From the IMG/VR virus record IMGVR_UViG_3300045988_087221: DNA of 64,000 nt, one strand, 5' to 3'. The position numbers were made by a program, and so were the translations under genes. Of this stretch, positions 8-44,055 are shown in pieces; within the stretch, counting starts at the first letter, position 1; each line of letters opens with the position of its first letter. The DNA is from a virus. A model generated the notes under the pieces. That model worked only from the letters and a program-made list of their open reading frames with translations, made no database searches and was not told the origin of the DNA.

Positions 8-229
8 TTAGTCATTAAATAACTTTTCAATAGATTTCTTATAATCTGAATTCTTATGTACGAAATACAGAGCACATATAGTATTTATTAGAGGGCATAA
101 TACTATAAATAAAGTTAGCAAATTTATTTCTACTTTCTTAAGGTCCATGCGATAACTAATGTAGAAGCAACTTGCAAGATATATTACTATGCAAATAAGT
201 CCTATAATAAGTAACTCTCCAAAACTCAT
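8..229 (-). CDS. small membrane protein (hypothetical)
   Basis: 73-aa ORF with two hydrophobic segments. ATGA overlap with upstream gene. Confidence 0.5.
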   Translation of the reverse strand: MSFGELLIIGLICIVIYLASCFYISYRMDLKKVEINLLTLFIVLCPLINTICALYFVHKNSDYKKSIEKLFND

Positions 230-1377
230 AATTCTTTAATATCAGAATCTTCAGACTTTCCTAGATATATATCATTTATAATACAATTACTTGTACGTAA
301 TTGTTCTATAAAACGTATTATACCGATAATTCTTGGAGATTTATCTTGATAATCACATATAGTAGGAATGTACTTAGTCTTAAGGCAATCCCAATGAGTT
401 ATGACAATGTTAAACTTACAATGATATGTCTCACTATAATTATCTAAACAATGTCTTTCTACAGCTCTTTTAAACAAAGGATAGTCAAAAGGACCTGTTT
501 TAAACTCTCCTTGTGGTCCATCGTTAGTATTTGATGGTTCTTCTAGAGTAAAATACATTCCTAAGTCCATAGAATAAGGATTGTATCCATTTCCATGTCT
601 AGTTAAATATGGACGCATAACTAAGTATACTTCTGCATTTTCTAGACACTTCTCTGGGATTCCATTTAATCCTACTTTACTAGGAGTACAGTGAGGCATA
701 AATCCTCTTTCCATATCTAGAAGAAGACCTTGTGAACCCTCCCAAATAACAGTATCAACCTCATCAGGATAATAAGTTCCGATTATAAAAGTCTCAGGAT
801 GTTCTTTAATAAAGGTACAAGCCTCTTTAAAAAGATCATCTAGTTTAGTGTCCCGTTCTAGATTATGATAATCCCTTACAGTCTGTAAAGCTACATCTGC
901 ATATTCATCTGTATAAGGACACATACGAGCACTATAAGTTACATTATCTTTGTTTCTTTTAAAACAAGCATGTATACCTTTACCACAAGTTCCATTATAC
1001 TTCACTCGTCCATCCATAGAGTCAGCTAATACATCATAAGGTGTAATAACTCTACAGTTAGGATTTATATATAACTTAGGAACTTCAATACCCTCACTAA
1101 CTAAGACTTTATATTCATTATAAATACATATTGGGTCAATGAATACTTCCTTATATAAGCAAGTTGGTACTCCTAGCAAAACACCGCTTCCCCAAGAAGA
1201 ACATACGTGTGATTTACCTTTATAAACCACACGATGACCGGCTTGTGGACCTCCACTAAATCTGATGACAACAGGTTTGTAACTATTCATACATAGCCAT
1301 TGTACTACATTACCCTTACCCTCATCACCAAATAGAGATCCAAGTACTATTTGATTACGAATTTGTTTGCTGTCCAT
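226..1377 (-). CDS. adenylosuccinate synthetase (PurA)-like enzyme
   Basis: Motifs in PurA order: GDEGKGN P-loop, GGPQAGH, CGKGI, EGSQGLLLD..PS, TRHGNG. Start placed at MDSKQ; the track ORF extends to 1410. Confidence 0.75.
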   Translation of the reverse strand: MDSKQIRNQIVLGSLFGDEGKGNVVQWLCMNSYKPVVIRFSGGPQAGHRVVYKGKSHVCSSWGSGVLLGVPTCLYKEVFIDPICIYNEYKVLVSEGIEVPKLYINPNCRVITPYDVLADSMDGRVKYNGTCGKGIHACFKRNKDNVTYSARMCPYTDEYADVALQTVRDYHNLERDTKLDDLFKEACTFIKEHPETFIIGTYYPDEVDTVIWEGSQGLLLDMERGFMPHCTPSKVGLNGIPEKCLENAEVYLVMRPYLTRHGNGYNPYSMDLGMYFTLEEPSNTNDGPQGEFKTGPFDYPLFKRAVERHCLDNYSETYHCKFNIVITHWDCLKTKYIPTICDYQDKSPRIIGIIRFIEQLRTSNCIINDIYLGKSEDSDIKEL

Positions 1378-2167
1378 AACTGTTAGAAACAATACGAGCA
1401 ATAGATTCACCTACATGCTCTTTATCTGAAATAATAAGATTGTCTCCTACATAAGGCTTCCAACTATCTGAAACCCTTTCTACACTATAATAACCATCAT
1501 GTTCTACATGAATGTGATAAATATCCCACTTCTCAGCGCACTCTCTGTAAATGAAAGAGGTAGCTAAATCTTCACTACACTCATCACCTATATAATGAGT
1601 TACTGCTTCTTTAGGAAGAGTTTTATGAATTGGCTCATCACTAATTGTGATTAAACAGCCTTTAATACCTCTTTTCTCCAGAGCATCGGTCTTAATATGA
1701 TTAGCAGCGAAGTACCAACACATATGAGGATCTTCTCCTCCATTGCCACCTCCTTTACCTTCAAGGTCAACTTTACGGAGCCATTTCTCCATAAGTTCAT
1801 CACTTGATTCAAACTGTCCTACTTGTAAAGGAGCCTCTTCATAACAGCCCTCTACATCGCCAAATGCCATAAAACAGATTTGAGGATTATCAATACCTGC
1901 CTTCATAATACTAGCTACACAATCTGGTAAAGTATTATCAATAAGATATTTAGGCACTTTACCCATAGAACCAGTCTCATCCAAAGCAATAATGATAGGG
2001 AATGATTCTGGGTGTTCTTCAGAATCACAAGACTCTCTGAAATTAATGTTAAGAGGATTCATTTCAGGGTCTAACTTTTTCTTGCTGAATGTCTTTTCAA
2101 TAGACTGAGATCTGTAACTATGACTTCTAGCTACAGCATCATTATACGAATAACTACCACATCCCAT
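1355..2167 (-). CDS. von Willebrand factor A (vWA) domain protein, TerY-like
   Basis: IIIALDETGSMG MIDAS-like DxTxS motif followed by an alpha/beta pattern. 270 aa. Confidence 0.6.
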   Translation of the reverse strand: MGCGSYSYNDAVARSHSYRSQSIEKTFSKKKLDPEMNPLNINFRESCDSEEHPESFPIIIALDETGSMGKVPKYLIDNTLPDCVASIMKAGIDNPQICFMAFGDVEGCYEEAPLQVGQFESSDELMEKWLRKVDLEGKGGGNGGEDPHMCWYFAANHIKTDALEKRGIKGCLITISDEPIHKTLPKEAVTHYIGDECSEDLATSFIYRECAEKWDIYHIHVEHDGYYSVERVSDSWKPYVGDNLIISDKEHVGESIARIVSNSYGQQTNS

Positions 2168-4228: not shown

Positions 4229-6688
4229 TTACTTGAATAACTTTTTAGCCCAATACAGGAGTTCTCTACAAACTGGTACAATTGCAGTAAGACCTACAAT
4301 CTCCAACCATGTTTCAATACTTAATGGCTCTGTTCTGAACACATCGCCACCAAATTGAACTATCAAAATTTGACCAATAAATATAACCAAACATATTCCA
4401 ATAAATGCAGGATTACTTAACAAACCATTAAAGATACTTCTGTCTTGTCCAAATACTCTTGCATTAAACAAGTTCCAGAATTGTAACATAACAAAAATAG
4501 TGAAGAACTCTGTAAGGCTATATGTATTACTAATCAGCAAATATAATAATATGCCGAAATACAAAATACCTACACCAAAGATTTCATACCACATTCTCTT
4601 TGTGATAATAAATGCCTTAGGATCACGTGGCTGTTCAGACATTACTGCTTCATTAGCTGGTTCTGTAGCCAATGCTAAAGCAGCAAAAGTATCCATAATT
4701 AAGTTAACCCATAGCATTTGGATAACAGTGAATGGTAAGTCTACCCCAATAAATGGACCTACACAAGCAATACCAATAGCTACAACATTTACAGTAAGCT
4801 GGAAAAGAATAAAGTGCTGAATATTCTTATACAAGCTTCTTCCCCACTTAACTCCTAAGATAACAGAAGGGAATGAATTATCAAGAAGAATAACATCAGC
4901 TGCATTCTTAGCAATATCAGTACCATTATTCATAGCTACACCTACTTCAGCTTGGTTAAGAGCAGCTGAATCATTAGTTCCATCACCAGTTACAGCTACT
5001 ACTTCTCCCATTCTCTGGAATCTCTTAACAAGTGTCTGCTTGTCTTCAGGTTTAGTTCTGGCAAATACATCTACTTTACGTAAATTAGTATCTGTCTGAG
5101 CTTCGACTTCCTTACCAAGCATTGTGTTAGGAGTCTGAGAGATATTAGCTTGAGCAGCGATAGAAGCAGCTGTTTCAGGATTATCACCTGTCACAATCTT
5201 AACTTTAATTCCTGCGTTTCTAGCAGCCTGAATTGCATCAGGTACATTACTTCTTACTGGGTCTTCGATAGCTACGTAGCCATCCCATATGAAGTCTGAG
5301 AGGGTATTTATATCAGAACCAATCTTGTGTGCAAAAGCAATACATCTTCTGCCTTTAGATTGTTGTTCTGCAAAATTAGGTATGTTCTCATTAGAGCAGA
5401 AATTCATTACTATTTCTGGAGCTCCCTTAATATAAGTAACTGCTCCATCACTAGTAATCATATATTTATTCTTAGAATTAAATTCTACTCTACCTGTTAT
5501 ATGAGTTTTATTTCTTTTATCGGTGATGTCAACTGACTTTTGTACATATTGCAGACAAGCACCCTCTGTAGGATTTCCTACTACTTCTCCTGCAGGACTA
5601 AGATTAGCAGTAGAATTAAGTACAATATTATTTATGACAGCATTTCTATCTGTAAAGTCCTGGAATACTACTTTCATTTTATTCTCTGTAAGAGTTCCTG
5701 TCTTATCAGTAAGAATAAGAGTTGTAGCACCGAGAGTTTCACAAGCATGCATCTTTCTAATAAGGTTATTAGCTTTAGCCATTCTCTTCATAGAATAAGC
5801 AAGAGCAAGAGTTACCGCCATAGGTAAACCTTCTGGTACTGCTACTACAATAAGAGCTACTGCAATCATTAAGAATTGTAAGCAATCATTTACAATATCA
5901 ATAGTATCTTTGCCTACATATCCTTGCTCTATAAATATATAACGTATAGCAAGAGACACAATAAGGATACCTGCAGCTGTGAATGCTATCTTATTAATTA
6001 AGCTAGCTAATCCATTAAGCTGTTTATTAAGAGGTGTTTCTACATCAGTAATAGAAGATGCTTCTCTAGCAGTCTTACCTACTTCTGTTTCATCTCCTAC
6101 TGCAAATACTTCACCTACACAAGTACCCTCAGCTACAATAGTGCTTTTATAAATTCTATTTGTAGGATAGGTAGCAGTCTCTGATTCAAAATTAGTTTTA
6201 GTTACAGGATTTGTTTCTCCAGTTAAAGAAGCTTCACTTACCTTCAAATTGCTATATTCTCTAACAATAATATCGGCAGGAACTTCTTCACCAGCTTCAA
6301 GTATTACAATATCCCCTACAACTAAGTCTTTACGAGCTACTTGAATTACTCCATTATCTCGTCTTACCTTAACTAGAGTATCATCACTACTAGTTAAAAG
6401 AAGGTCAAACTTTTTAGCTGCTGACCAGGTATTCCAAAAACCAATACCTACAGCTAAAGCAATGGCTACAATAATACCAATAGGCTCTGTAAATTCACCC
6501 TTTACAAATCCTAAGGCAATAGATACTGCAGCTGCAATAAGTAATATTACAATAAGTGGGTCTTTAAATCCATCAAGTAACATTACATACCAAGCATCTC
6601 TCTTCGGAGGTGTCAATACATTAATGCCATGTCTAGCACGTGAATCTTCTACTTCTGTTAAGCTAAGACCGTAATTTATATCTGTCAT
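4229..6688 (-). CDS. P-type (P2) Ca2+-transporting ATPase
   Basis: DKTGTLT phosphorylation site, TGE, VPEGLP (TM4), TGDGTNDSAAL hinge, NLIMDTFAALALATEP (TM6), cation-ATPase N-terminal motif. 819 aa. Confidence 0.9.
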   Translation of the reverse strand: MTDINYGLSLTEVEDSRARHGINVLTPPKRDAWYVMLLDGFKDPLIVILLIAAAVSIALGFVKGEFTEPIGIIVAIALAVGIGFWNTWSAAKKFDLLLTSSDDTLVKVRRDNGVIQVARKDLVVGDIVILEAGEEVPADIIVREYSNLKVSEASLTGETNPVTKTNFESETATYPTNRIYKSTIVAEGTCVGEVFAVGDETEVGKTAREASSITDVETPLNKQLNGLASLINKIAFTAAGILIVSLAIRYIFIEQGYVGKDTIDIVNDCLQFLMIAVALIVVAVPEGLPMAVTLALAYSMKRMAKANNLIRKMHACETLGATTLILTDKTGTLTENKMKVVFQDFTDRNAVINNIVLNSTANLSPAGEVVGNPTEGACLQYVQKSVDITDKRNKTHITGRVEFNSKNKYMITSDGAVTYIKGAPEIVMNFCSNENIPNFAEQQSKGRRCIAFAHKIGSDINTLSDFIWDGYVAIEDPVRSNVPDAIQAARNAGIKVKIVTGDNPETAASIAAQANISQTPNTMLGKEVEAQTDTNLRKVDVFARTKPEDKQTLVKRFQRMGEVVAVTGDGTNDSAALNQAEVGVAMNNGTDIAKNAADVILLDNSFPSVILGVKWGRSLYKNIQHFILFQLTVNVVAIGIACVGPFIGVDLPFTVIQMLWVNLIMDTFAALALATEPANEAVMSEQPRDPKAFIITKRMWYEIFGVGILYFGILLYLLISNTYSLTEFFTIFVMLQFWNLFNARVFGQDRSIFNGLLSNPAFIGICLVIFIGQILIVQFGGDVFRTEPLSIETWLEIVGLTAIVPVCRELLYWAKKLFK

Positions 6689-14011: not shown

Positions 14012-14097
14012 AATAATTTAAATACAAAAATCCCTGAACTATATAGGTAGCCCAGGGATTAAAATAACGTTAAATAATAAAAACAGTTCTATGAACC

Positions 14098-14433
14098 GGT
14101 GGAGCATTGGAGAGTCGAACTCCAGTCACTCCGATTTGCATCAAAACATTCTTACAGCATAGGTTTTAAAGACTATCCTTGTCTGCTAGGGTTGACAAGA
14201 TTAACATATTGTCAACTTCCACCACTCTGTTCCTAAAGTATACAGAGAACTTACAAAAGAAATGGAAAATAGTGCACCTTTCTGTTCCTAAGCAAGTGCT
14301 GCTCGGCTTCTCAGGCTGCGATAGCGTAAGAAGCGGAAGTGTTATTTACTTCGCCAATTAATTTTTTACTTGTCTATCCAAGTTGTCTTGCTGTGTTCCT
14401 TATCTCCTCGAAGTTCAAAACCACGAATGCCCC
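14098..14433 (-). ncRNA. ssrA: tmRNA (complete, phage-encoded)
   Basis: The 5' GGGGCAT pairs with the 3' ATGCTCC-A-CC, giving G3:U70. T-arm GGAGTTCGACTCTCC. Internal tag frame 14311-14355 reads GGC GAA GTA AAT AAC ACT TCC GCT TCT TAC GCT ATC GCA GCC TGA = GEVNNTSASYAIAA*. Confidence 0.85.
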
Positions 14434-23941: not shown

Positions 23942-24133
23942 TCATTTATAAGTTTTATAATCGTTATTGCGTAGTTCATCGACTGAAATTTTAATATTTT
24001 CTATAGATTCTCTTGCAAGAGTCCGTAGCTGAGTTCTGCGAACAGTATTAGAGTATAGTTTAGTCCACTGTGATTTATCCTTGAGAATCTTCACAGTATT
24101 AATCTTTATCTTCATTACTTTCTTTATTAACAC
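23942..24133 (-). CDS. hypothetical protein
   Basis: 63-aa ORF. Shares an ILKDK..KLYS motif with the N-terminus of 22823-23788. Start uncertain. Confidence 0.35.
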   Translation of the reverse strand: MLIKKVMKIKINTVKILKDKSQWTKLYSNTVRRTQLRTLARESIENIKISVDELRNNDYKTYK

Positions 24134-24518
24134 TAGTTACAATAGAGTTATAAACTATATCCCAATTAGATTCTTCTTTATCTTTGAAATCAGGGTCTTG
24201 AAGATCCTTTATTACAGCAAGATAAGCATTTTTAAATTGTTCTGATGTAATTTTCTCCCAGTTTCTAATATCATATATATTAGATACATATCTACTAATA
24301 GAATCACGTTTTAAGCATATAAAATATATCCAATTATTTTTTATTGAAACAATTTTTAATAAATAGTTCCATACTTTATCTATGTAACAATCACCAACAG
24401 TAAACTTTGAACGAGCCTCTTTCTTCTCTAATGCCCTAATTTTACTGTAAATATTATTACTTTCTTCCTGTAATTTCTTATATTTATTCCTTAGTTCTTC
24501 TAATGTTTCCATAATCAA
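24099..24518 (-). CDS. hypothetical protein
   Basis: 139-aa ORF with an N-terminal coiled coil. Confidence 0.55.
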   Translation of the reverse strand: MIMETLEELRNKYKKLQEESNNIYSKIRALEKKEARSKFTVGDCYIDKVWNYLLKIVSIKNNWIYFICLKRDSISRYVSNIYDIRNWEKITSEQFKNAYLAVIKDLQDPDFKDKEESNWDIVYNSIVTSVNKESNEDKD

Positions 24519-30954: not shown

Positions 30955-31027
30955 TAAATACGGACAGACTCGAACTGCCAACCTCCGGATTAGTGTCCGT
31001 TGCTCTATCCAATTGAGCTACGCATTC
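30955..31027 (-). tRNA. tRNA-like gene with a 6-nt anticodon loop CACTAA (contains CTA); identity undetermined or pseudo
   Basis: Good acceptor (GAATGCG/CGTATTT), D arm (GCTC..GAGC) and T arm (GGCAG-TTCGAGT-CTGTC). The anticodon stem CGGA/TCCG encloses only 6 nt. Confidence 0.5.
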
Positions 31028-33040: not shown

Positions 33041-33210
33041 AAAATGAAAGATAAAAATCTTCTACAAATCCAAAAATTCTACATTACTTATAAATTTTCA
33101 CAAATTCATAGTAATTATAAATAATTTCCATTTTCTCAAAACATAAATAATCAATTATGTGATTCGGACGGGACTTGAACCCGTACAGTCATTCCTGACC
33201 AAGGGATTTT

Positions 33211-33782
33211 CCTACCACACTTGCTTTTACACAAGCTAACTTAAATAAAGGGATTCGAACCCTTAATCCTCAAGAGATATTTAACGACGACTTTAGAGGC
33301 GCTTCCGTCAATCTGCTGCCGTATACCAATTCCGCCATATTTAAGTTATTGTGGTCTGGACTATTTTACTACCATATTAGAAATCTTGCAAGTAAGTATA
33401 TAAGGTTTAATCTAACCTCTAATAGCAGTCTGCTCCCCTTATTTCTGCGAATCTTGCCAGTTTAATTTTAAATATACAATTTCTAACTTAGGTATCTCCT
33501 CTATAGTCTCTACGCCATTTATGCTGTAACACTTCAATTTACATTTAAGATAGATTAGCGTTCTATCACAATTTAGTTCGCCATCGCCAAAATCTTATGT
33601 CACCATAGATGAGGTTTCTGTTGCAAGTCAATTAGATTTCTGAATACTGCTTCTATAATCATTACTCTGTTTCTTACACAGACGCTAACCTTTTTACAAT
33701 TAGTAATTAACTTGTTTAATTAGGGAGATTCTACTTCTGACCTTTCGTATCAGAGCACTCAAAACTGAATAAAGTATTTTTT
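33211..33782 (-). ncRNA. group I intron (IC3-like) in the anticodon loop between U34 and A35
   Basis: P1 ACUU^AAAA pairs with UUUUGAGU, with U-G at the splice site. The terminal nucleotide is G. The core GUAGAGACUAUAGAGGAGAUACCUAAG resembles the cyanobacterial tRNA-Leu intron P7/P3/P8 (GCAGAGACUCGACGGGAGCUACCCUAACG). P7' is AUAGUCCA. Confidence 0.75.
33239..33345 (-). ncRNA. tRNA-like element nested in the intron P9 loop
   Basis: Perfect 7-bp acceptor, Leu-like D arm GGCGGAATTGGTATAC, and canonical T arm AAGGG-TTCGAAT-CCCTT. The central arm GACGG/TCGTC carries a 14-nt loop containing CTCTAAA. 106-107 nt. Confidence 0.45.
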
Positions 33783-33871
33783 AAGTCCCTCGTGTCTACC
33801 AATTCCACCACCGAACCATTTGGCAGTTTTAGTATTTAACGTCTAAGTGGAATAATACTGCCAACCTTTAG

Positions 33872-33905
33872 ACAAAAAAGGAGCAACTAATTATCTGCTA
33901 GTTGC
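33872..33905 (-). terminator. hairpin plus U-tract terminator
   Basis: GCAACTA/TAGTTGC stem followed on the minus strand by TCCTTTTTTG. Confidence 0.55.
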
Positions 33906-34091
33906 CAACAATATTTGGGAAAAAACCAACATGTAATTTATGGGGTTGGTATTCTTATTTTTCAAACAAATTAAATCCGTTCAACATCATAGTCATATCC
34001 AATACCAATGTTCTCTAATAACCACGATGGATCATCCAATACATAATCATCTGGAACTTCTACTGTTACTTTTAATACTATCTTTTTCATA

Positions 34092-35753: not shown

Positions 35754-35839
35754 TGTTCCCTATGGGATTCGAACCCATGACCCTCGGATTAAAAGTCCGA
35801 TGCTCTCAAGCCTTACGGAACCAACTGAGCTAAGGGAAC
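35754..35839 (-). tRNA. tRNA-Lys (anticodon TTT) with a 12-nt insertion in the D-loop
   Basis: Acceptor GTTCCCT/AGGGAAC, anticodon arm TCGGA-CTTTTAA-TCCGA, T ATGGG-TTCGAAT-CCCAT. The D region is GCTC-AGTTGGTT[CCGTAAGGCTTG]A-GAGC. Confidence 0.7.
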
Positions 35840-41572: not shown

Positions 41573-42288
41573 TTAATTGTTCATAGATAGCTAATAACGT
41601 ACAACTGTTACTAACTATTTCGTCCAAGTCTCATCAGTATGAATTTTATAGTCTCCTTGGCTGACTAAACAATTTCTCTTACTCCTTGTTCAAGGGAAGC
41701 CTCTCTTTAAGCACTGAGGTTATTGCTTTAAAAATGTGTAGTTCTTCAACACTTACTATCTCCTACACTGATTTTCATTCAGCTTTCTTTTTGTATATTT
41801 GTAAAATATACTCAAATACTCTCAATGTGTTACGACTGCTTATCTACTTCTCATACAACTTAGCTTTATAATAATGTTAATTAATTATATATTAAGAAGC
41901 AACTCCACTCTAGATAAGTAAGTGAGCTGTGTTTTTTTACTTTAAACTTATTTTTAGTTTAACCGTCTAACTAAATAAAGGACTTAATGTTGTTTTAATT
42001 TTGTCATTTTTGTTTTTTCAAATAATACAAAGTAACAGCTCCCCATACACCAAATTGGCAAAATGGCAAATAAAGTGAAAGTACACTAAATGTGCCCTCC
42101 CACACATCTGCCGTTGCGCGCTTACCTCTCTAGTGTATCAGAGAGCTATGTTACTGTGTTTTATTTTTAATTTTGTTGTTAAATTTAGCTGTCTTTCCAG
42201 CTTGCCAGAATAAAAAATAGAAACATTGTTAACTAACTCTGTTGTTTTGTTGTTTATTGTTTTGTTGTGATTTTGTTGTTTACGACAG

Positions 42289-43958: not shown

Positions 43959-44030
43959 TCTCTTATGGTGTAATGGTCAGCACAGAAGACTCTAAATCTT
44001 TTAGTCAGGGTTCGAATCCTTGTGAGAGAA
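43959..44030 (+). tRNA. amber suppressor tRNA (anticodon CTA), Gln-like
   Basis: Canonical cloverleaf: acceptor TCTCTTA/TGAGAGA (U1:A72), D GTGT-AATGGTCA-GCAC, anticodon arm GAAGA-CTCTAAA-TCTTT, T CAGGG-TTCGAAT-CCTTG. The D arm is nearly identical to that of tRNA-Gln(TTG) at 35041-35111. Confidence 0.9.
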
Positions 44031-44055
44031 CAATTTAATTATAAAAATATGTATT

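Follow-up and report, generated by a model that had tools for sequence, protein, structure and literature searches.

Is a tRNA-shaped sequence that lies inside the intron of a tRNA gene a part of that intron, a relic, or a gene in its own right? The question is raised by a locus in the virus record IMGVR_UViG_3300045988_087221 of IMG/VR, of which a stretch of 64,000 nucleotides (nt), hereafter called the window, was analysed. On the minus strand of the window a tRNA-Leu(UAA) gene is interrupted by 572 nt, and a tRNA-like element (TLE) is nested within the interruption. The explanation that we prefer, and regard as quite probable, is that this tRNA-Leu(UAA) is split by a group I intron devoid of an open reading frame (ORF), the P9 helix of which hosts an independent TLE gene. 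The TLE itself is best read as an RNA gene riding in the intron, from a conserved phage RNA family whose members mostly stand free in tRNA arrays. The split gene is composed as follows.

33817 down to 33160, minus strand: whole tRNA-Leu(UAA) gene of a gut phage, interrupted by the intron
33783..33817, minus strand: 5' exon GGUUCGGUGGUGGAAUUGGUAGACACGAGGGACUU, 35 nt, with the acceptor 5' strand, the D arm, the anticodon stem 5' strand and C32 U33 U34 (ARAGORN, spliced and genomic sequence)
33160..33210, minus strand: 3' exon AAAAUCCCUUGGUCAGGAAUGACUGUACGGGUUCAAGUCCCGUCCGAAUCA, 51 nt, with A35 A36 A37 A38, the anticodon stem 3' strand, the long variable arm, the T arm, the acceptor 3' strand and A73 (ARAGORN, spliced and genomic sequence)

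The initial annotation, made from the letters alone, had joined two exons lying 572 nt apart into a type II tRNA-Leu(UAA) with the anticodon loop CUUAAAA. ARAGORN calls this tRNA, 86 nt in length, on the spliced sequence and, with introns allowed, also on the genomic DNA as i(36,572); the split gene escapes the scans of the window by Rfam and by ARAGORN at default settings. The insertion point between U34 and A35, likewise proposed at the outset, is fixed by two requirements, namely that the last U of the 5' exon pair with G of GAGU in the guide and that G (33211) be the last base of the intron. It is matched by two intronless alleles (in contigs L008 and L041), which carry the junction GGGACTT|AAAATCCC, identical to that predicted for the window (GGGACUU|AAAAUCCC in RNA letters). 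Furthermore, the acceptor stem is GGUUCGG/CCGAAUC in the window as against GGCUCAG/CUGAGCU in sister phages; pairs 3:70 and 6:67 are thus compensated with their partners on opposite sides of the 572-nt intron, from which we argue that the joined tRNA is under selection.

The intron, in which no ORF of at least 40 aa was found, was compared with 13 related introns: 7 in tRNA-Leu(UAA) genes from large gut-phage contigs, 2 in primase genes (IAS virus and cr116_1), 3 from Lak phages (Lak-C1, Lak-B1 and Lak-A1) and 1 in a tRNA(CAU) gene (contig L125). Its parts, with the helices taken from the alignment of all 14 introns (alignment A2), are listed below.

33211..33782, minus strand: group I intron, 572 nt, with the last base G 33211 as terminal (omega) G
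33757..33764, minus strand: internal guide UUUUGAGU, read from the sequence, the same in 12 relatives
33737..33753, minus strand: P2 hairpin CUGAUAC-GAAA-GGUCAG, with a GAAA tetraloop and one A.G mismatch in the window
33724..33729, minus strand: P3 5' strand AUCUCC, partner GGAGAU at 33494-33499 (alignment A2)
33625..33713, minus strand: lineage-specific insert, 89 nt, seemingly within the P4 5' strand (comparison with relatives)
33516..33624, minus strand: P4-P5 (33576-33624) and P6 (33516-33575), with the Q-like stretch CGAACUAAAUUG (by-eye alignment to the intron of L042)
33494..33508, minus strand: R element GUAGAGACUAUAGAGGAGAU, consisting of the P7 5' strand GACUAU (33503-33508), AGA and the P3 3' strand GGAGAU (33494-33499)
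33369..33492, minus strand: P8, with receptor halves CCUAAG (33487-33492) and UAUGG (33372-33376) and the stem UUAGAAAU/AUUUCUAA
33385-33478, minus strand: terminal insert of P8, 94 nt
33359..33364, minus strand: P7 3' strand AUAGUC, part of the S element AAAAUAGUCC, with one compensated pair among 6 pairs that are 98.8% paired
33350..33354, minus strand: P9 5' strand CCACA, partner UGUGG at 33215-33219
33220..33236, minus strand: P9b hairpin GCUUG-UGUAAAA-GCAAG, inside P9 and 3' of the nested element

Thirty-five pairs were proposed for alignment A2, and sliding of the 3' partner and 500 shuffles were used as controls. The proposed pairs are 97.7% paired, compared with 30-43% after sliding, and 13 of them have changed on both sides, values that none of the 500 shuffles reached. 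The double changes include 7 of the 9 inner pairs of P8, which is 100% paired with near-invariant receptor letters, and one each in P3 (6 pairs, 98.8% paired; U-A to C-G in L125), P7 and P9. The core helices P3 (AUCUCC/GGAGAU), P7 (GACUAU/AUAGUC), P8 (UUAGAAAU/AUUUCUAA) and P9 (CCACA/UGUGG) are found where the initial annotation had placed them, as are the U.G pair of P1 (ACUU/GAGU) and the terminal G; all 14 introns end in G. The guide GAGU pairs with the exon sequence ACUU (P1, with U34.G at the splice site) and its UUUU with AAAA of the 3' exon (P10), while the guide of L125, GAUU|GUGUG, matches the exons of its own gene, CUCAU and AAUC. The P2 stem varies among relatives (CCUAUGA/UCAUAGG, CUAUUA/UAAUAG, CCGGAG/CUCUGG) around a constant GAAA loop, and P8 is flanked by CCUAAG/UAUGG, which we take to be the 11-nt tetraloop-receptor motif. 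Hairpins P5 and P6 are present. In P9 a C-G to U-A exchange (CUACA/UGUAG) is seen in 5 relatives; P9b is shared by every relative, even where P9 holds another insert, and its CUUG/CAAG is replaced by CUUA/UAAG in cr116_1 and Lak-C1. The three lineage-specific inserts, in P4, at the tip of P8 and in P9, are all peripheral. At the site of the 89-nt insert in P4, L118 and L043 have a 14-nt hairpin, Lak introns no insert and the IAS intron about 190 nt; between the two strands of P9 the order is UAAC, the 105-nt element, UUA and the small hairpin.

The same intron family interrupts a protein gene. In the RefSeq records of IAS virus (L002 1306-1910) and cr116_1 (L004 1355-1923), two adjacent coding sequences annotated as 'DNA primase' belong to a single gene, which a group I intron of 605 and 569 nt, respectively, interrupts at the site CTCTT^AAAAUU; the fragments joined at the predicted CTT^AAAA yield uninterrupted ORFs (...EGKVTL|KIYQPF...). 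That the family splices at CTT^AAAA is argued from the junction in L008 and L041, the restored primase ORFs and the acceptor covariation across the intron. By alignment A2 the window intron is a member of a family found both in crAss-like phages and in Lak megaphages. To judge from contig sizes and this common intron family, the window phage is probably crAss-like and of the large-genome group; contigs with near-identical loci measure 108-225 kb, and tblastn with one AAA ATPase of the window gave no close named relative, the nearest named ones being distant. The tRNA-Leu(UAA) gene of Lak megaphages carries two group I introns (L003 1105-1839 in Lak-C1 and L190 304-1047 in Lak-B1), one in the D-loop (after GGUGGAAUUGGUA) with its own GCAGAGACUAUA...AUAUAGUCC core and the other, of the window's family, at U34^A35. 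In Lak-A1 (L191, about 780-1290) an intron of this family with a canonical P4, GAAUAU/AUAUUC, lies in a degenerate tRNA-like gene (AAGCUUAGAU...AUCUAAGCUU) for which ARAGORN gives no call. Directly upstream of the tRNA-Leu gene in the window there is a terminator-like hairpin GGCAACUAGCAGAUAAUUAGUUGCU followed by a U run (33882-33906, minus strand), together with a second hairpin; both are kept in all sister contigs.

Between CCACA and UGUGG of P9 the initial annotation had noticed a tRNA-like module of 106 nt. The module is indeed present, with covariation in its acceptor and T stems, and its length is 105 nt.

33240..33344, minus strand: TLE, 105 nt, last base G 33240 (Rfam tRNA, model R1, alignment A1)
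33344-33338 / 33247-33241, minus strand: acceptor stem of the TLE
33335-33318, minus strand: D arm of the TLE
33310-33305 / 33290-33285, minus strand: stem of the central hairpin of the TLE, with a 14-nt loop
33264-33248, minus strand: T arm of the TLE
33345..33348, minus strand: UAAC, pairing with GUUA (33240-33237), by which the TLE acceptor stem is carried on into P9

The Rfam tRNA model (RF00005) gives the TLE 33 bits, at a cutoff of 29, with a 33-nt insertion at the position of the anticodon loop, while model R1, built from its relatives, gives 115 bits and finds a single copy in the window. Pattern scans of IMG/VR yielded 47 distinct relatives, whose acceptor stems differ widely (GGGAGAG, UUAAAUA, ACCCCUA, GUGAGUG, ACACUAU, GGUCAGG, GGGCGGG, UAUUAUA and others). 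In the 34 short-form sequences of alignment A1, both sides have changed in 7/7 acceptor pairs and in 4/5 T-stem pairs, with 94.8% of cells paired and no shuffle that matches. In the central hairpin, the stem (U)GACG(G)/(U)CGUC(R) has compensated versions, namely GAUG/CAUC, GGCG/CGCC and GACA/UGUC. Beside these variable stems, about 50 central nucleotides are near-invariant (UGGCGGAAuUGGuAUACGGCAGuAGAUUGrCGGAAGCrCC...AAGUCGyC), and this near-invariance persists in a scan in which the 5' half of the stretch was not fixed. An anticodon arm is absent: there is at most an AGA/UCU pair, the AGA of which never varies even where it lies outside the search pattern, and between its halves are 33 nt in the window and up to about 60 in long forms. 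Instead of an anticodon stem-loop, the central region thus consists of 33-60 nt of hairpin(s) with conserved sequence; in some members a further hairpin or two follow the central one, several of them with GAAA loops. The discriminator base varies among copies and CCA is not encoded. Three other pairings were tried and rejected: the minimum-free-energy register UUGACGG/UCGUUAA is ruled out by the variants CGUCA and CGUCAC, a variable-arm hairpin AAGCU/GGUUU by L007 and L108, and a pairing of loop CGCC with GGCG of the D arm by the frequent variant GCACC. Taken together, the junction of L008 and L041 and the covariation in both RNAs confirm, at the level of sequence, that the split tRNA-Leu and its nested element are more than chance.

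The distribution of the TLE bears directly on whether it belongs to the intron. It lies in P9 of the tRNA-Leu intron in the window and in L028, L036, L039, L074, L078, L091, L101, L118 and L129; 15 nt downstream of an intronless tRNA-Leu(UAA) in L008 and L041; and, in L042, L043 and L046, downstream of an intron-bearing tRNA-Leu whose P9 carries a different insert. In L016, L023, L030 and L034 an intact other tRNA-Leu(UAA) is followed by an intron remnant, the TLE and then a leftover of the old 3' exon end. In phages of about 100 kb, such as cr60_1 (Buchavirus), the TLE stands 13 nt upstream of a tRNA(CUA), mostly with a tRNA-Met further downstream; cr60_1, the only GenBank phage with a TLE, has it unannotated at L001 1494-1596 (NC_055891.1, about 24065-24167). 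A second, independent nesting site is found in L125, a 99.9-kb IMG/VR contig, in which a group I intron interrupts a tRNA(CAU) gene (about 1230-1880) after its anticodon and carries the TLE in the terminal loop of P5 (L5), where RF00028, the Rfam group I model, treats it as an insertion. Two contigs of Bacteroidota metagenome-assembled genomes and a few environmental contigs also have the TLE. Most loci are free-standing and in tRNA arrays, the orientation is always that of the neighbouring tRNA genes, and the habitats cover gut, freshwater and soil-type metagenome contigs. In genome and metagenome scans, 2/120 and 4/120 of the matches listed were true members, Bacteroidota-associated or of unclear origin, and these added no central variation. 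At the P9 site the introns of IAS virus, cr116_1 and Lak hold other sequences. The expectation that the element should recur in related introns therefore held in part: it is found in P9 of several, others carry unrelated inserts, and the family is mostly free-standing. From this distribution we conclude that the TLE outlasts loss, decay and exchange of the intron and that the intron dispenses with the TLE; the TLE is taken as its own gene because it is mostly free-standing and persists at loci whose intron is missing, degenerate or supplied with another P9 insert.

A route between the sites may be proposed. The strand from P7' to P9, GUCCAGACCACAAUAAC, resembles the tRNA 3' end plus flank, GUCUGAGCUACAUAAUU, and a duplicated UCUGAGCUACA comes after those TLE copies that lie downstream of tRNA-Leu; recombination between GUCCAGACCACAAUAAC-like and GUCUGAGCUACAUAAUU-like stretches could shuttle the TLE between P9 and the site after the tRNA. 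As side observations, the neighbour of the TLE in cr60_1 that is annotated as tRNA-Gln has the anticodon CUA, i.e. that of an amber suppressor, and L125 carries at 693-758 a RAGATH-1-like hammerhead of 50 bits, below the cutoff.

Several points weigh against an active intron with an independent guest. The search with RF00028 (cutoff 50 bits), recommended in the initial annotation, did not match the window intron, at E values up to 10 on a 1.2-kb slice, or the introns of IAS, cr116_1 and Lak-C1; among shorter relatives it did recognise the tRNA-Leu(UAA) intron of L042 (53.7 bits, above the cutoff) and reached 41.5 bits (E 4e-9, below it) on the intron of L125. The R element is the RF00028 consensus region in both L042 and L125, and the part matched in L042 includes CGCCGAGCUAAAUUG, the counterpart of the Q-like stretch; the failure on the window intron is most likely due to its large inserts. 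P4 is non-canonical in the window, where it carries the 89-nt insert and, in the best by-eye register among several compared (CAAC/GGCG, tentative), two mismatches, whereas L118 and IAS have CGAC/GACG there and P4 is canonical in L042, L125 and Lak-A1; the A.G mismatch in P2 is likewise without counterpart in sister introns. Reduced or lost activity is therefore possible, and the intron could be dead and the tRNA-Leu of the window a pseudogene, with the TLE as the sole functional part or with nothing functional at all, a reading with which the intron remnants downstream of intact tRNA-Leu genes in L016, L023 and L034 agree. We consider it quite unlikely, as the terminal G and the helices P1, P10, P3, P7, P8 and P9 are intact, the acceptor-stem compensation spans the intron, and ARAGORN finds no other tRNA-Leu(UAA) in the window. 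For the TLE, 4-11 further pairs prolong the acceptor stem in the large-phage lineage, be it intronic or not (UAAC/GUUA in the window, AAGCUAA/UUAGCUU in L016, AAUAAAC/GUUUAUU in L008), and such a prolonged stem is unlike a typical RNase P substrate. Four nested copies have suffered deletions: 7 nt of the variable region are lost in L036 (4288-4385), L101 (2719-2816) and L129 (3849-3946), an event that occurred twice independently, and in L074 (3663-3754) GAAGCG of the conserved hairpin loop is gone in addition to the 7 nt. Selection on nested copies is accordingly not uniform; no deletion was seen in free-standing copies. Clustering of the ORFs within 4 kb of 53 distinct copies revealed no protein family near the TLE that is common to different lineages, and the neighbourhood thus gives no pointer to a partner. 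Finally, both splicing and release of the TLE are steps that we infer from sequence.

The continuous helical extension formed by the TLE at helix tips (P9 in the window, L5 in L125) and its Leu-like D arm would also suit a peripheral domain of the intron, either a folding scaffold located at P9 or P5, or else a handle by which a tRNA-binding protein would aid splicing, by analogy with the tRNA synthetases that aid some mitochondrial group I introns. This is unlikely, because most copies lie outside introns, including those beside an intronless tRNA-Leu and those in Buchavirus-like phages, and because introns of the same family (L043, L046, IAS, cr116_1, Lak) carry an unrelated P9 insert or none of comparable size. 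Another rival sees in the TLE the functionless remains of a type II tRNA gene that had been duplicated, which would account for the missing anticodon arm, the D arm like that of tRNA-Leu and the deletions in some nested copies. This reading is nevertheless very unlikely, since neutral decay is not expected to produce 15 or more distinct acceptor stems with compensation in every one, nor to keep about 50 central nucleotides near-invariant across habitats. To a decoding role we give hardly any credence. It was suggested by CUCUAAA, which the initial annotation had taken for the anticodon loop of a supF-type amber suppressor. The motif does lie at 33298-33292, within the 14-nt hairpin loop; a supF-type loop it is not, as it has no 5-bp stem with a 7-nt loop and is not conserved. 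The loop of 13-14 nt is CCUCUAAAG in the window lineage and CCCUAAAG, CUCUGAAG, CCACGAAG, CCUUAAAG, CCAUAAAG or CCCCAAAG elsewhere, relatives show CCCUAAA, CUCUGAA, CCACGAA, CCUUAAA, CCAUAAA or CCCCAAA in place of CUCUAAA, so CUA gives way to CUG, ACG, UUA, AUA or CCA, and a 1-nt indel shifts it. With CUA not conserved and no proper anticodon stem, the suppressor reading fails, even though these phages appear to recode TAG and the Buchavirus-type TLE stands 13 nt from a suppressor tRNA; a canonical tRNA(CUA) is, moreover, already present in the window. The variant in which the TLE is a tRNA-Leu(UAA) with a 25-nt intron, as called by ARAGORN -i (tRNA-Leu(taa) i(37,25)), fares no better: A-type copies allow no 7-nt loop on a 5-bp stem, whether the hairpin is included or not, and ARAGORN reads near-identical copies as Leu(taa), Val(gac) or Pyl(cta). 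Identity as a transfer-messenger RNA (tmRNA) was rejected as well, pair 3:70 being G-C, A-U, U-A or C-G and never G-U, and an ordinary tmRNA being encoded elsewhere in the window; a mini-tmRNA reading of the codon-like loop (GCN CCN UAA/UGA) fell for want of G3:U70 and by the 1-nt indel in the window lineage, and the stops of that loop carry little weight because in-frame stops are expected by chance in AT-rich sequence.

For the preferred reading, a splicing-competent tRNA-Leu intron with an independent TLE gene in P9, the following course of events can be proposed. The guide UUUUGAGU would pair with ACUU (P1, with its U.G) and with the AAAA that opens the 3' exon (P10), guanosine would attack after U34, and the freed exon would then attack after the terminal G (33211), giving the 86-nt tRNA and a free intron. 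The P1 of only 4 bp may be helped by the anticodon stem, as is reported for the tRNA introns of Azoarcus and Anabaena; the core would be held by the P3/P7 pseudoknot, and the GAAA loop of P2 probably docks in the 11-nt receptor at the base of P8. The TLE, presumably co-transcribed with the tRNAs, has in this lineage ended up at the closed end of P9; there its acceptor stem should merely lengthen the helix and leave the core undisturbed. Enzymes that process tRNA ends use the acceptor/T minihelix and the D/T elbow, both of which are kept in the TLE, and such enzymes might free it from the excised intron or from the precursor. It would then act as a non-decoding tRNA mimic for a conserved tRNA-recognising factor; a conserved binding partner is suggested by the near-invariant unpaired central nucleotides that persist across habitats beside co-varying stems. 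A bolder version, possible but on balance doubtful, is that the TLE represents a new class of phage non-decoding tRNA mimic with a job of its own, for which phage tRNA introns are expression vehicles. It could be a decoy or inhibitor of a conserved tRNA-recognising factor of Bacteroidota, for instance an anticodon nuclease of host defence, a synthetase, or a modification or processing enzyme, or else an amino-acid carrier outside translation. If so, the two nestings, in P9 of tRNA-Leu and in L5 of tRNA(CAU), would have been selected as coupling TLE release to splicing, and the system would be a bacterial-virus counterpart of intron-hosted small RNAs.

Other features of the window were recorded in parallel. 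A tRNA with a 6-nt anticodon loop (CACUAA) at 30955-31027 (minus strand), ARAGORN tRNA-???, is matched at the corresponding position of sister phages by tRNAs with the two-letter 'anticodons' tt, ta, at and gg, and a tRNA-Lys(UUU) at 35754-35839 (minus strand), on the ends of which ARAGORN and Rfam disagree, carries a 14-nt mini-hairpin (CC-GUAA-GG) in its D-loop. A RAGATH-1 hammerhead ribozyme (80.8 bits, cutoff 56.3) lies at 41581-41667 (minus strand), a phage tmRNA with the tag GEVNNTSASYAIAA at 14097-14433 (minus strand), and the tRNA with anticodon CUA, an amber suppressor, at 43959-44031 (plus strand). Few long standard-code ORFs exist beyond 48 kb, suggesting TAG recoding of the late genes. 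Protein genes include a P-type cation-transporting ATPase of 819 aa with the full Pfam domain set (4229-6688, minus strand) and an adenylosuccinate synthetase (226-1410, minus strand).

The TLE thus appears as a conserved tRNA-shaped RNA family in Bacteroidota-associated phage sequences that annotation has overlooked, its score being at the tRNA cutoff, and it bears on the reported "pseudo-tRNAs" and the missing suppressors in recoded Crassvirales. As far as we found, an RNA gene inside the self-splicing intron of another RNA gene is undescribed for bacteria and phages in the literature searched, and the nesting provides a scaffold design found in nature. For crAss-like phages, Yutin et al. 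2021 (PMC7886860) reported group I introns, with a high intron density among those of 145-192 kb, and crAss-like phages also share the intron family of the window (IAS virus, cr116_1). Those introns were found via endonuclease ORFs in protein genes, and tRNA introns, introns without ORFs and the TLE are unmentioned there (PMC7886860). No description of group I introns in phage tRNA genes or of the TLE was found in the literature searched, in agreement with the initial annotation, to which the nesting was new. The group I intron is accordingly of a known kind, and the RNA family that it hosts is an undescribed one.

The closest parallel by host gene is the cyanobacterial and plastid tRNA-Leu(UAA) intron (Anabaena type), the textbook "ancient" bacterial intron, which shares both the gene and the U34^A35 site with that of the window. 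It differs in its length of about 205-250 nt, whereas the window intron has 572 nt, resides in a phage, carries three large peripheral inserts, one of them a tRNA-like RNA gene, and belongs to a family found also in a protein gene (primase). The common U34/A35 site may reflect targeting by the guide rather than descent, because the same family occurs in primase at CTT^AAAAT, a site that would fit targeting by UUUUGAGU as well as descent. With a related-looking intron at U34/A35 in gut phages and its family in primase, re-invasion versus descent becomes directly testable. The window core GAGACUA...AUAGUCC, together with the receptor CCUAAG/UAUGG at P8, presumably resembles IC3 cores. In the tRNA introns of Azoarcus and Anabaena, a very short P1 is backed by the anticodon stem (PMC3895272), and the Azoarcus tRNA-Ile intron (subgroup IC3) and the Anabaena intron are in this respect like the intron of the window.

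As to the guest, it shares with tRNA (RF00005) the acceptor stem, a D arm with GG and a T arm with GGUUCGAAUCC, and differs from it in having no anticodon stem-loop. Second functional RNAs in the periphery of an intron, on the same transcript, are known from the twin-ribozyme group I introns (Didymium GIR1) and from eukaryotic intron-hosted small nucleolar RNAs. The TLE differs from these in its nature, as a tRNA mimic in place of a ribozyme or guide RNA, in its host, which is a phage tRNA gene, and in its family being mostly non-intronic. The tRNA cluster of phage T4 encodes stable non-tRNA RNAs, species 1 and 2 or rnaC and rnaD, that are matured with the tRNAs; like them the TLE is a small structured RNA among phage tRNA genes, distinguished by the full tRNA elbow of D and T arms that it keeps.

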